Assembly (NCBI RefSeq): GCF_048403405.1
Contig: NZ_CP183129.1
DNA: 64,000 bases
From: Escherichia coli
GTDB lineage: Bacteria > Pseudomonadota > Gammaproteobacteria > Enterobacterales > Enterobacteriaceae
Reading direction: 5' to 3' (one strand)
Within the stretch, counting starts at the first letter, position 1; every line of letters begins with the position of its first letter. A model generated the notes under the pieces. The model made no database searches. It was not told where the DNA came from and saw nothing but the letters and a program-made list of their open reading frames with translations. The translations under genes were made by a program, and so were the position numbers. This document shows positions 16,640 through 61,526 of the stretch, piece by piece.

Positions 16640-18266
16640 TAGGTTTCACTTTCGGAATATAGATTGAAAATAAGGTACCGCAGGGATCATTATCTTCGAG
16701 AGTGATAACACCACCGCAGCGCGTTACGTAGCTGGCAATCAAGTACAACCCAATGCCATGTTCACCGGGCTCGTCAGCACGCGTACTGACACCCTGCTCA
16801 AATATTTTGTCTCGTAGAGACTCTGGAACGCCGCAGCCCTGATCGGCGACTTCAATCACCACATCATCGCCTTCATCGCTGAGGAATAATTCAACGATCT
16901 TGTTTCCTTCATCGCTACGTAGGCTGGCTTCGAAGGCGTTATCAAGTAAATTGCCAACAATGGCTGCAAACTCGGTGCTGTCCAGTCCTGGCGGCAGTTG
17001 CGAAAGCTGACTTCCGGGGACGATGACCATTTTTAGCCCCAGTTCGCGGGCGCGCTGCACTTTACCAAAAAGCAGCCCCGCCACCTGGCGATCGGCAAAC
17101 GCCTCGCGCAGGCTATCAATAAGCTGTTGCTGGGCCTGAGACTCCCCCTGCACCATCGCCAACACGCGATCATACTCTTTCATCTGCAACAGACCATTGA
17201 GCGTCGACATCCAATTGAGATGCTCGTGTCGCAATGTGCGCAGGCTCTCGACGTATTGTTTAATTTGCGTCAGTTGCGCATTGAGGGTGGATATTTCGTC
17301 TTTACTACGAAAGCTGATAATGGCCCCCAGCAAATCATCACCAGAACGAATAGCTTCCCGGTTGGCAATAACGCTCAGACCGTTAAAGTTCGCCACCACA
17401 TCCTGTCGTTTTTCATCAATCTGTTCGGTAAAGAAATCGGCGGGCCTGACCACTTCAGCAATGGGTTTACCCAACCATTGCCGTCCGGGGGAGCTCAGCC
17501 CCAGCATCTTTCTTGCGTTACGATTGATGGCGGTAATGTAACCGTGCGGATCCACCGCAATGAGCCCTTCATAAACCGAACTAAACAGCGCCTCTTGCTG
17601 ACGGACCACGCGTGCGATTTGCTTTGGCTCCATGCCCATCATCTGCCGACGGATATGCGCGGCCAGGAACCACGACAGCAACATCAGAATCCCTAACAGC
17701 ACGACAAACACGCCAGCCATCGGTAATAAAAACTCAGCCCGCCAGCTATCGATTTTACTCACCAGGTAGCCAATCGACACCACGCCGATGACTTTTCCAT
17801 CGTCATCAAAGATTGGCGTTTTGGCACGCATCGCCATGCCAATTGACCCTTTCCCGGTGATGAAGTAGCTCTCCCCTTTCTCCAGCGCGCCCGGTTTGGT
17901 GAACTGCATAGGATAACCAATTTTCTCCGGATTAGGATGGTAAAGACGAATCGAGTGCCGATCGCCAATCACCACATAATCGAAATCAGTATCTCTTTGT
18001 AATTTGTCAGCGATGGTCGCCAGCCTCTTGTAGTCACGCGTTTTCACTGCGCTGATGATACTGTCATTAGAAGCAATAATTTTTGCCTGATTCATTGCCA
18101 TGTCGCGCACATGAAGCGTTAAATAGTCCTCAAAACTGGCCGTAAAATATTGCGCCAGGGCTGCAATGACAAATATTGAGAACACCAGAATCAGCAAAAA
18201 GATACGCAGCGGAAATGCCAGTCTTTGGAAAAATGCAAACTGTTTATTCTCGTTAAGCTGCAACAT
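16608..18266 (-). CDS. dpiB: Sensor histidine kinase DpiB (CitA), citrate sensing
   Basis: 552 aa from MLQLNENKQ...; two TM segments, PAS and HATPase regions; overlaps dpiA by 32 bp. Confidence 0.9.
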   Translation of the reverse strand: MLQLNENKQFAFFQRLAFPLRIFLLILVFSIFVIAALAQYFTASFEDYLTLHVRDMAMNQAKIIASNDSIISAVKTRDYKRLATIADKLQRDTDFDYVVIGDRHSIRLYHPNPEKIGYPMQFTKPGALEKGESYFITGKGSIGMAMRAKTPIFDDDGKVIGVVSIGYLVSKIDSWRAEFLLPMAGVFVVLLGILMLLSWFLAAHIRRQMMGMEPKQIARVVRQQEALFSSVYEGLIAVDPHGYITAINRNARKMLGLSSPGRQWLGKPIAEVVRPADFFTEQIDEKRQDVVANFNGLSVIANREAIRSGDDLLGAIISFRSKDEISTLNAQLTQIKQYVESLRTLRHEHLNWMSTLNGLLQMKEYDRVLAMVQGESQAQQQLIDSLREAFADRQVAGLLFGKVQRARELGLKMVIVPGSQLSQLPPGLDSTEFAAIVGNLLDNAFEASLRSDEGNKIVELFLSDEGDDVVIEVADQGCGVPESLRDKIFEQGVSTRADEPGEHGIGLYLIASYVTRCGGVITLEDNDPCGTLFSIYIPKVKPNDSSINPIDR

Positions 18267-58618: not shown

Positions 58619-58716
58619 GCCGGATGCGGCGTGAACGCCTTATCCGGCCTACAAAAATCTTGCCAATTCAATATATTGCAGGACCACGTAGGCCTGATAA
58701 GCGTAGCGCATCAGGC
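58619..58716. repeat. REP / BIME element (two inverted REP units) in fepA-entD spacer
   Basis: GCCGGATGCGGCGTGAACGCCTTATCCGGCCTAC and inverted GTAGGCCTGATAAGCGTAGCGCATCAGGC. Confidence 0.7.
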
Positions 58717-58753: not shown

Positions 58754-59374
58754 ATGAAAACTACGCATACCGCCCTCCCCTTTGCCGGAAATACGCTGCA
58801 TTTTGTTAAGTTCGATCCGGCGAGTTTTTGTGAGCAGGATTTACTCTGGCTGCCACACTACGCGCAACTGCAACACGCTGGACGTAAACGTAAAACAGAG
58901 CATTTAGCCGGACGGATCGCTGCAGTTTATGCGCTGCGGGAATATGGCTATAAATGTGTGCCCGCAATCGGCGAGCTACGCCAACCTGTGTGGCCTGCGG
59001 GGGTATACGGCAGTATTAGCCACTGTGGGGCTACGGCATTAGCCGTGGTATCTCGTCAACCGATTGGCATTGATATTGAAGAAATTTTTTCTGCGCAAAC
59101 AGCGGCAGAATTGACAGACAACATTATTACACCAGCAGAACACGAGCGACTCGCAGAATGCGGTTTAACCTTTTCTCTGGCGCTGACACTGGCATTTTCC
59201 GCCAAAGAGAGCGCATTTAAGGCAAGCAAGATACAGGCCGCTCAAGGTTTTCTGGATTATCAGATAATTAGCTGGAATAAACAGCAGATCATCATTCGAC
59301 TAGAGGATGAGCAGTTTGCTGTGCACTGGCAGATAAAAGAAAAAATAGTCATAACGCTGTGCCAACACGATTAA
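58754..59374 (+). CDS. entD: 4'-phosphopantetheinyl transferase EntD
   Basis: 206 aa from MKTTHTALPF...; upstream part of the 256-aa ORF overlaps the REP region. Confidence 0.85.
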   Translation: MKTTHTALPFAGNTLHFVKFDPASFCEQDLLWLPHYAQLQHAGRKRKTEHLAGRIAAVYALREYGYKCVPAIGELRQPVWPAGVYGSISHCGATALAVVSRQPIGIDIEEIFSAQTAAELTDNIITPAEHERLAECGLTFSLALTLAFSAKESAFKASKIQAAQGFLDYQIISWNKQQIIIRLEDEQFAVHWQIKEKIVITLCQHD

Positions 59375-59495
59375 TTGACAACATCTGGTACGATTCGCCC
59401 GCAGCCATTACTGACCGCGGGCGAAAGTGTAAAGCAGGTGCCTTACCATCCTGACCTGACAACCGGATATGCGGGGATTGCTCCCCGCACAACGG

Positions 59496-59648
59496 CTACT
59501 TCTTCGGTTCGTAAGCGAGAACAGCCTTAAACTCAATATTACGTTCCTTCACCGTAAACTCACACAGCGAGTCGCGGACCAGAAGCGTAAATCCCAGCAC
59601 CGTTAAACACAGCACTATGACTGCCACAAGGGCATATTTCGTCAGCAT
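59496..59648 (-). CDS. hokE: Hok-family type I toxin (HokE)
   Basis: 50 aa [31 protein letters not shown]...AYEPKK; GGAGG RBS; Hok-family TM plus conserved Cys. Confidence 0.75.
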
Positions 59649-59745
59649 GTTTATATTGCCTCCATGCGAAGAAGGGACTACCATCCGAGTTGTTCAGGTT
59701 TGGGTAGGTAGCCCCAGGGTGTACTGACCCCAAAAAGTTGGACAG

Positions 59746-60597
59746 TTAAACACGAGGCATATAGGTCTGATTCCGATATTCAATTGGAGTCAGACCTTTT
59801 AATTTCAGGCTAATTCTTCTGCTGTTGTAGTATTCAATATATTCCGTAACAGCATCCTTCAGTTCGCTTATATTACTGAACTCATCAAGATAAAAACACT
59901 CCGACTTTAAGGTTCCAAAGAAACACTCCACCACAGCATTATCCAGACAATTGCCTTTTCTGGACATGCTTTGTTTAATACCATGTTCTTTAAGGATATT
60001 TTGATATCTTCTCATACGATACTGCCATCCCTGGTCAGAGTGCAGAACAGGATGCTCGTGAGGATTAAGCTTTTTGAATGCCTGATCGAGCATATTCTCA
60101 ACCATGTTCATCACTGGTCTTTCCGAAAGGCTGTAAGAAATAACTTCGTTGTTGAAGAGATCTATTACTGGAGACAAATACAGCTTGCGCCCATTGACTA
60201 CAAATTCAGTAACATCGGTAACCCACTTCTCGTTTGGCCGCGTAGCCTTGAAATCTCTTTGGAGAACATTAGGGGCGGTTTGCCCTACCTCTCCTCTGTA
60301 AGAGCGGTATCGCTTGACCTTAATCGCTGCTTTAAGTGAGAGGGTTCCCATCAGGCGCTGAACAGCTTTATGGTTAATCTGTTTCCCTTCTCGATGAAGA
60401 GACAGCGTTACCCTACGGTATCCGTATCGGCCTCTATTCTCGTGATAAATCTCACCAATACGCTTTTTAACGTCCGCATACTTGTCAGGCTTGCTGAGAG
60501 CCTTTAGATGGTAATAAAACGTACTGCGCGGTATCTCCGCAGCCCTGAGAAGCTCATCAAGAGGATAAAACTGCCTTAGCTCGTTGAGTACTTTTAC
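59746..60597 (-). CDS. insK: IS150 orfB (DDE integrase/transposase catalytic part, InsK), expressed by -1 frameshift fusion to orfA
   Basis: Open frame continuous from about 60651 to stop at 59746; no ATG before MGTLSLK (60351); upstream in-frame residues read ...[32 protein letters not shown]...; 5' boundary approximate. Confidence 0.8.
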
Positions 60598-61115
60598 TTT
60601 TTCGTGGGATGAGCTAAGGCTTTCAGCTTTTTTAGATACATAAGCCGCGTTTCAAGAAATCGAACTTGCCTTTCAAGATCCTCAATGCGTCGGTCTTTTG
60701 ACAGCTCCAATGCTGATGCCGCTTTTTCTGGATCAACTGATATTGCAATGTTTCTTTTGGTGCCAATCTTGAGCGCGCGTAAACCAGCTTCTCCGCGCTC
60801 TTCATAGACCTTCAGCCACCTGGCTACAGAACCACTACCAGCAAGCATAAAGTGAGCAGCAGCCTGATTAAGGGACATGTGCTGCTCGATCACAGCTTTC
60901 ACGACCTTAATACGCAACTCTGGATCAGCACTAACGCCTTTAGGTTTGGGAATTAAACCTTTTTCTCCATGTTTTTCATAGAGGGCAACCCATGTCCTGA
61001 CCTGGGTTCGGGGGACACCAAAACGTGCCGAGATGATCCTGTAACCATCATCAGTTGTGAAGTAGTGATTCACGACTTCAAGGCGCTTTTCAAAAGGGTA
61101 TTTTGGCTTTGACAT
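60594..61115 (-). CDS. insJ: IS150 orfA protein (HTH DNA-binding, InsJ)
   Basis: 173-aa ORF ending ...ALAHPTKK. Confidence 0.9.
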   Translation of the reverse strand: MSKPKYPFEKRLEVVNHYFTTDDGYRIISARFGVPRTQVRTWVALYEKHGEKGLIPKPKGVSADPELRIKVVKAVIEQHMSLNQAAAHFMLAGSGSVARWLKVYEERGEAGLRALKIGTKRNIAISVDPEKAASALELSKDRRIEDLERQVRFLETRLMYLKKLKALAHPTKK

Positions 61116-61526
61116 ATTAGGGGCTATTCCATTTCATCGTCCAACAAAATGGGTGCAGTACAGGGTTGATAGAAATATCTCCTGGGGCTTCATCTTTCCA
61201 GACCTCAGAGTAAACCTGAAACCGGAAAGCTTCAGGCACCCGCCGTTATCTTACCCTTCCTCAGCAAAATAGCTGTTTATTTATACAGTGAGTCCTGTTT
61301 CGGACTTCTCACTCCTAATTTGATCAACTGAAGCTGAACCCGTTTTTTTCTGCATGCCTCAATCGTCAAAATTCTTCGCCACCAGCCAGCTCTGCCATAA
61401 CTTGTCACATTGCAAAAGTAGCCAAATTGCTTCAGTCACCATCACCAAAAAAAAGAAACATTCCAGAACTTCCGCATCTCGCCCAGCCGCTCCGACTTCT
61501 ATACTGAATAGAAAACGCCAACATAA

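Follow-up and report, generated by a model that had tools for sequence, protein, structure and literature searches.

The region between entD and IS150 in the DNA analysed here very probably belongs to a chromosomal type I toxin-antitoxin locus, hokE/sokE, split by a complete IS150, and makes up the two-thirds of it distal to the promoter. We put the probability of this reading at close to nine in ten. The whole stretch of DNA is called the window below. It is 64,000 nucleotides of Escherichia coli (NCBI RefSeq assembly GCF_048403405.1, contig NZ_CP183129.1), and the region runs from 59375, the first base past the entD stop codon, to 59719, the final base before IS150. IS150 divides the leader of the hokE mRNA and also interrupts the gene for the SokE antitoxin. 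This is the decisive feature, and it is absent from the original prediction, which took no account of a severed leader (the tac/ucb 5' part) or a split sokE. The 3' half of the locus is complete with its post-stop hairpin, fbi box and terminal hairpin, and the 5' end is displaced. The window locus is best described as an IS-disrupted hok/sok locus (Table 1).

Table 1. Features of the split hokE/sokE locus in window coordinates, with strand and the evidence for each
Feature	Position	Strand	Evidence
Terminal 14-bp hairpin, hokE transcript 3' end	59394..59425	-	folds
fbi (fold-back inhibition) box AGGCACCU	59436..59443	-	MFE fold of IS-free reconstruction
Conserved GC-rich hairpin past the stop codon, intact (the stem of the original prediction)	59469..59490	-	alignment, folds
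hokE toxin CDS	59496..59648	-	ORF list, Pfam HOK_GEF, RefSeq annotation of an identical genome
Predicted sokE promoter, intact, facing IS150	59656..59684	+	read by eye, anchored on K-12 sokE 5' end
hokE Shine-Dalgarno GGAGG	59659..59663	-	direct sequence reading
Sok-target hairpin of the hokE leader (GGGGCUACC...GGUAGUCCC), retained beside hokE	59674..59715	-	Rfam, folds
In-frame upstream ATG, start of 62-codon ORF	59682..59684	-	ORF list, 8-allele comparison
sokE 5' fragment, ~28 of 60 nt	59692..59719	+	K-12 sokE coordinates mapped
CCC target-site duplication, hokE-proximal copy	59717..59719	.	sequence
Complete IS150	59720..61162	-	inverted repeats, target-site duplication, K-12 alignment, Pfam, RefSeq
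Terminator-like 15-bp hairpin and T-run inside IS150, antisense to insK	59763..59807	+	terminator scan, fold
CCC target-site duplication, distal copy	61163..61165	.	sequence
Displaced 5' part of the hokE mRNA leader	61163..61241	-	RF01794, K-12 mapping, fold

The insertion and the split locus

The element is 1443 bp long and its edge is 71 nt upstream of the hokE ATG. Its right end (...GGGGTCAGTACA) ends at 59720 and its left end (TGTACTGCACCC...) begins at 61162. The length, the terminal inverted repeats that start TGTACTG, the 3-bp target-site duplication and orfA/orfB with the A6G frameshift site identify it as IS150 of the IS3 family. There are 4 mismatches to the K-12 IS150 (99.7% identity), and orfA is intact. 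The transposase has the Pfam HTH_28 and rve domains, its programmed frameshift is annotated by RefSeq, and its genes have the same orientation as hokE. The insertion point is ...ATCAACCC^TGGGGC..., within a stem that is the SokE terminator on one strand and belongs to the hokE leader on the other.

The leader can be followed with Rfam RF01794 (hok-leader/sok), a 157-nt model that spans +1 to the hok start and has a gathering score of 59. Beyond IS150 the sequence reads GGGTGCCTGAAGC... from 61241 downward, and the model matches there from its position 1. Positions ~1-80 of the model match 61241..61163, and positions ~80-157 match 59730..59640. The second match reaches 20.5 bits only against the gathering score of 59, so a contiguous hok leader does not adjoin the toxin ORF. 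On the same model the uninterrupted hokE leaders of strain 7/2 reach 76 and 84 bits. Since the two halves of the model match on either side of IS150, a single 157-nt leader element has been cut in two. The displaced part begins at +1 with GGGUGCCU (tac, 61241..61234), 1.4 kb away.

The antitoxin gene is broken at the same place. Mapped onto the window, K-12 sokE (b4835) begins at 59692 (+ strand) and ends at 61197, which means that IS150 cuts sokE after ~28 nt. What remains on the far side is a 35-nt 3' fragment with the SokE terminator (61163..61197, +), including most of the terminator hairpin and the U-tail. A complete sok gene, with promoter, ~60 nt and terminator hairpin, is not found; its halves lie on either side of IS150. 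The predicted sokE promoter consists of TTGCCT (59656..59661), a 17-nt spacer and TACCAT (59679..59684), and it is a call made by eye that falls below the threshold of the consensus scan. Its -35 box overlaps the complement of the hokE Shine-Dalgarno sequence. In the Sok-target hairpin the differences between hokE alleles in the two arms preserve pairing.

An IS-free reconstruction was made by removing IS150 and one CCC, which gives a 406-nt RNA. Its MFE structure has an energy of -176.3 kcal/mol (z = -7.9), and in it the 5' GGGUGCCU pairs with the 3' AGGCACCU, the tac-fbi fold-back pairing that locks full-length hok mRNAs. Both boxes are present in the window, where they are 1.8 kb apart. Since the reconstruction folds with this pairing, the ancestral locus was a canonical hok/sok.

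The toxin frame and the 3' elements

An intact hokE frame of 50 codons with a good ribosome binding site had been predicted, and both points hold. The ORF on the minus strand (59648..59496) has 50 codons and a TAG stop (59498..59496) and is listed without interruption. Its product matches Pfam HOK_GEF (PF01848) with E = 6.3e-10 and 39 bits against a gathering cut-off of 22. An ORF of ~50 aa above that score and the RefSeq name hokE place it in the Hok/Gef family; the RefSeq entry is WP_000956470.1, in genomes that are 100% identical over 59300..59800. Strains 746 and ST2747 are among those with full identity across the region. The minus strand reads ...GGAGGCAATATAAAC ATG CTG ACG... at the start, and the 10-nt spacer CAATATAAAC separates GGAGG from the ATG. 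This allele differs from K-12 HokE by A8V and G25R.

Codon 46 of hokE is TAC (Tyr46, 59511..59513, -) and the next base is G, so that the UACG context is kept in the window. In K-12 the hokE mRNA is reported to be A-to-I edited at the Tyr46 position (~40%), which changes Tyr to Cys.

The original prediction also described a GC-rich stem 3' of the stop codon and read it as part of the fold-back and terminator region. The stem exists: GUGCGGGGA-GCAA-UCCCCGCAU (GCGGGGATTGCTCCCCGC) forms 9 bp at 59490..59469 in both MFE folds. It does not fill the whole of 59375..59495, and it is neither the fold-back element nor the terminator. Those parts are the fbi box and the terminal hairpin, and the latter lies just beyond the convergent entD stop codon.

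Comparison with other hok loci

The window and K-12 MG1655 hokE/sokE (b4415/b4835) share the ybdK-entD locus, the leader, the toxin frame and the post-stop hairpin. K-12 sokE (607733..607792) is on the strand opposite hokE (607836..607988), and IS186B starts 19 nt past the hokE stop codon, in the post-stop hairpin. K-12 thus keeps its 5' leader and sokE intact and has lost the 3' part to IS186, which is the opposite of the pattern in the window. IS186 also lies within the post-stop hairpin in hokC; the junction inside this hairpin reads gtgcggggagtaatcc|cataagcgc. IS186 prefers G-rich...C-rich targets. The K-12-type junction of hokE with IS186/IS421 is found in 1741 of the 5426 complete E. coli genomes.

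The hok/sok system of plasmid R1 has a Hok/Gef toxin, tac-fbi pairing, a Sok-target hairpin and an antisense promoter over the hok Shine-Dalgarno sequence, and all of these are in the IS-free reconstruction. The window differs from it in being chromosomal, in having no conserved out-of-frame mok, and in the interruption of both leader and antitoxin gene.

The K-12 hokA/mokA/sokA locus is a parallel for the broken antitoxin. IS150 splits sok there as well and leaves a 35-nt sok 3' fragment, equal in length to the displaced sokE fragment. One of its IS150 junctions matches the homologous position, 21 nt after GCCCC, to within 1 nt. However, IS150 in K-12 hokA is in the opposite orientation relative to hok and has no target duplication, whereas in the window it has the same orientation as hokE and a CCC/CCC duplication. 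K-12 hokA also lacks 39 nt of leader relative to the intact hokA of EDL933. With this deletion and no target duplication the original target site in K-12 hokA is ambiguous.

Many E. coli strains have two tandem hokE copies ~504 bp apart between ybdK and entD, each with a leader. The window has one, and its allele is that of the entD-proximal copy (WP_000956470.1) of strain 7/2.

Frequency and recurrence of the insertion

A 161-nt query centred on the IS150-hokE junction was matched at a coverage of at least 80% in 551 of the 5426 complete E. coli genomes (~10%). A 175-nt reconstructed query for the uninterrupted leader was found in 4954 of the 5426. In strain E07 IS150 sits at the same site in the second, tandem hokE copy, and the duplication is TCC/TCC, not CCC/CCC. 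The variant base is in both copies of the duplication, so the TCC variant predates the insertion. In strains MLI023K2 and EC28 IS150 is in a K-12-type hokE allele that also has IS186/IS421 downstream, and hokE is boxed in. Judged from these target-site and allele sequences, the insertion at hokE is one that arose more than once. The IS150-struck copy of E07 is adjoined by SDR oxidoreductase genes and not by entD.

The allele has been published as sokE::IS150 (Nucleic Acids Res 2024, PMC11551753). According to that paper, IS150 lies within sokE upstream of hokE in the laboratory strain XL1-Blue, as it does in the window, and "exactly" the same disruption is shared by more than 400 natural isolates as well as some Shigella flexneri. 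Base-for-base identity of the junctions is here a matter of the paper's wording together with our alignment of natural isolates. XL1-Blue is a K-12 strain and also carries IS186 just past the hokE stop codon. Both ends of its locus are struck, whereas the 3' end in the window is intact, and its HokE allele differs from that of the window at A8V and G25R. The paper describes reversion to sokE+. It also reports from P1 transduction that sokE::IS150 determines the RecA-dependence of certain strains with engineered antisense transcription, with the mechanism left aside.

More generally, hok/sok homologues are listed as hotspots of mobile-element insertion (bioRxiv 10.1101/527788), and de novo IS150 insertions next to hokC, hokE and mokB are described in evolved REL606 lines (PMC5419217). 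The REL606 hokC insertion site, 16,972, maps cleanly into the sokC hairpin (NC_012967.1). Two others, "insA-7/hokE 582,237" and "trg/mokB 1,272,468", were set aside since they fall in cusA and chaB in NC_012967.1. That insertion elements lie beside chromosomal hok genes has been textbook matter since 1999. With the allele published, the gene annotated and the hotspots reported, the feature was already known, and its value as a discovery is small.

The one less ordinary point is that IS150 enters the Sok-terminator stem precisely and repeatedly in several hok paralogues, and that the antisense pair may have been rewired. IS150 is at the same position in this stem, or 1-2 nt from it (...TCAACCC^ / ...TCAAAGT^), in hokE, in hokC and possibly in K-12 hokA. 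The hokE cases are natural isolates and XL1-Blue, and the hokC cases are three evolved REL606 lines at 16,972. Within hokE, independent insertions share one nucleotide: they comprise CCC and TCC duplications, a laboratory event in K-12 and two allele backgrounds. The insertion target CAACCC-TGGGG is loosely like the IS150 right end CAACTTTTTGGGG. One can imagine that IS150 recognises the Sok-terminator stem of hok loci by a specific sequence or by its structure, and that insertion rewires the system. A chimeric Sok'-IS150 RNA, made from the sokE promoter and ended by a terminator within IS150, would then be antisense to hokE read-through as well as to the transposase mRNA at its 3' end, and transcription from the displaced hokE promoter would run into the transposase genes. 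We regard this scenario as speculative and rather unlikely.

The upstream ATG and mokE

The mokE frame had been left unsettled, in agreement with the K-12 MG1655 annotation, which has sokE and hokE; mokE was looked for there as a reference frame and none is annotated. The original prediction expected mok to overlap hok in a different frame. This is true of mokB, which is out of frame in the K-12 annotation, but not of mokC or the mokA pseudogene. K-12 mokC (70 codons) ends at the hokC stop codon and lengthens hokC by 19 codons in frame, and the end of the mokA pseudogene is common with that of hokA. An in-frame ORF at hokE therefore has a precedent. Identifying Mok frames is "not trivial" according to a recent Hok survey (bioRxiv 10.1101/2025.08.07.668861), and our literature search found nothing useful on mokE or on hokB with IS150.

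The in-frame ATG that had been predicted is present at 59684..59682, 12 codons upstream of the hokE start, and gives a 62-codon ORF (59684..59496). The leader is 146, 147 or 148 nt long among 8 hokE alleles, and with this variation the other upstream starts hold no frame. A GTG at -145/-144 and an ATG at -99/-100 shift frame or lose the codon between alleles, and a TTG at -40 is absent in the window allele and in copy B of 7/2. No out-of-frame mok-like ORF with a start codon is conserved among the 8 alleles. Two other candidates were rejected. The frame-1 ORF from a GTG at +3 (77 codons in the reconstruction) is shifted by 1-nt indels among alleles, and the TTG-initiated 57-codon ORF at 59733..59560 has its start codon within IS150.

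This leaves the ATG at -36, and one could argue that the 62-codon ORF is the true mokE, extending hokE in frame into the leader as mokC does for hokC, or that it gives a longer form of HokE. It is the sole upstream start that is invariant in the 8 alleles, even though neighbouring bases vary; the K-12 annotation has mokC and hokC in one frame; and SokE complementarity stops 8 nt upstream of the ATG, within the range of a ribosome footprint. However, there is no Shine-Dalgarno sequence 5' of this ATG (AACAACUCGGAUG). Its bases belong to the 3' arm of the target hairpin, and on the other strand they read as the CAT of the predicted sokE -10 box TACCAT; these two roles would conserve the ATG anyway, so its conservation is not evidence of initiation. 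Both mokC and mokB start at an ATG in the 5' arm of the target hairpin, hokE has no ATG at the homologous position, and K-12 and PGAP annotate the 50-codon product only. We consider either role of the 62-codon ORF unlikely.

Transcription of hokE

Transcription of the toxin gene from an IS150 outward promoter had been suggested. This finds no support in the consensus scan, in which the right end of IS150 showed no sigma-70-like promoter directed at hokE. A hybrid promoter with its -35 in the IS150 right end and its -10 in the flank was also considered and rejected: nothing passes the scan, and the best -10 by eye, TACCTA, is poor. The scan, which does not reach Rho-dependent termination, also gave no terminator-like site for minus-strand transcription from 61241 to hokE. 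Since the transposase promoter and the displaced hokE promoter both face hokE, read-through into hokE from inside or upstream of IS150 is possible. In the MFE fold of such a read-through RNA, the hokE Shine-Dalgarno sequence is predicted to pair with GCCUC of IS150.

The hairpin inside IS150 at 59763..59807 is followed by TTTTAATTT and lies on the antisense strand at the 3' end of the transposase gene. Its form suggests a terminator that would act on transcripts entering IS150 from the right end.

The insertion has kept the hokE ORF, Shine-Dalgarno sequence, Sok-target hairpin, post-stop hairpin, fbi box and 3' hairpin together and intact. It has placed the start of hokE transcription 1443 bp upstream, along with the tac 5' end and what else belongs to the 5' leader, and sokE, cut after ~28 nt, has lost its terminator. 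For transcription we argue for the following scenario. hokE would now be transcribed only as the tail of RNAs begun inside IS150 or upstream of it, at the weak transposase promoter or at the displaced hokE promoter. The intact sokE promoter would fire into IS150, and its transcript probably ends at the IS150-internal hairpin as a chimeric antisense RNA of ~115 nt. Such a Sok'-IS150 RNA would be fully complementary to any hokE read-through transcript. If hokE is found only as a read-through tail and meets an antisense RNA complementary to it, then HokE output is probably low and the allele tolerated. The promoter scan, the antisense complementarity, the predicted pairing of the Shine-Dalgarno sequence and the allele frequency together make low output the likeliest state.

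Alternative explanations

Since sokE is broken, one can imagine that hokE has been freed from SokE control and is a live toxin gene transcribed from IS150, either from an outward promoter or by transposase read-through. The ORF and Shine-Dalgarno sequence are intact, IS150 is oriented as hokE, no minus-strand terminator-like site was found from the transposase stop (59746) to hokE, and K-12 HokE is reported to be toxic when over-expressed (bioRxiv 10.1101/2025.08.07.668861). According to PMC11551753, the phenotype of K-12 sokE::IS150 also differs from that of sokE+. This shows that the allele is not always neutral, and the phenotype would also be in keeping with some expression of HokE or with lost SokE function. 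Against this, the scan found no sigma-70-like outward promoter in the IS150 right end, and the predicted sokE promoter is intact with a transcript complementary to any read-through RNA. The Shine-Dalgarno sequence is paired in the predicted fold of the chimeric RNA. The allele is also present in ~10% of complete genomes without obvious cost. A 2025 preprint reports that IS-free chromosomal hokA, hokB and hokC were unable to mediate post-segregational killing (bioRxiv 10.1101/2025.08.07.668861). We find a live, uncontrolled hokE quite improbable.

The other extreme is that the segment is a functionless, decaying remnant that owes its intact ORF only to how recently IS150 inserted. The near identity of this IS150 to the K-12 copy (99.7%) is what a recent insertion would look like, and independent insertions recur at the site. 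The IS186/IS421 hits on hokE counted above, in 1741 of 5426 genomes, point the same way, and the literature calls chromosomal hok loci putatively inactivated. Yet hokE is annotated intact in every IS150-bearing genome examined, and these include alleles that are only 95-98% identical. The reported A-to-I editing of its mRNA means that the K-12 hokE allele is at least transcribed, which also disagrees with a dead remnant. This explanation is plausible, but we give it clearly less than even odds.

Annotation of the locus

The practical value of the split locus is in annotation. With Rfam at its gathering threshold, a "sok" RNA is called at 61086..61241 (-), and half of it is IS150. This RF01794 match has 63.7 bits and passes the gathering score only by running 77 nt into IS150; it is a trap made of ~79 nt of leader (61241..61163) and 77 nt of IS150 left end. 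Automatic annotation also lists hokE as an ordinary toxin of a toxin-antitoxin pair and does not mention the broken antitoxin gene. The RecA-dependence phenotype in K-12 is reported but unexplained, so a map of the regulatory parts on each side of IS150 should be useful for follow-up.

PGAP annotates a "hypothetical protein" of ~89 aa (WP_071526521.1) antisense to the hokE leader, at 59617..59727 (+). It is a frameshifted pseudogene in most genomes, and IS150 truncates its ORF in the window. The annotated frame is probably a false ORF laid across the sokE region. Further along, at the fepA-entD junction, Rfam ES036 (CssrF) matches an sRNA at 58654..58695 (+) with 42.2 bits against a gathering score of 37.6. 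The match falls within the 5' end of the long entD ORF, which starts at a GTG, and the RefSeq entD is shorter (621 nt).
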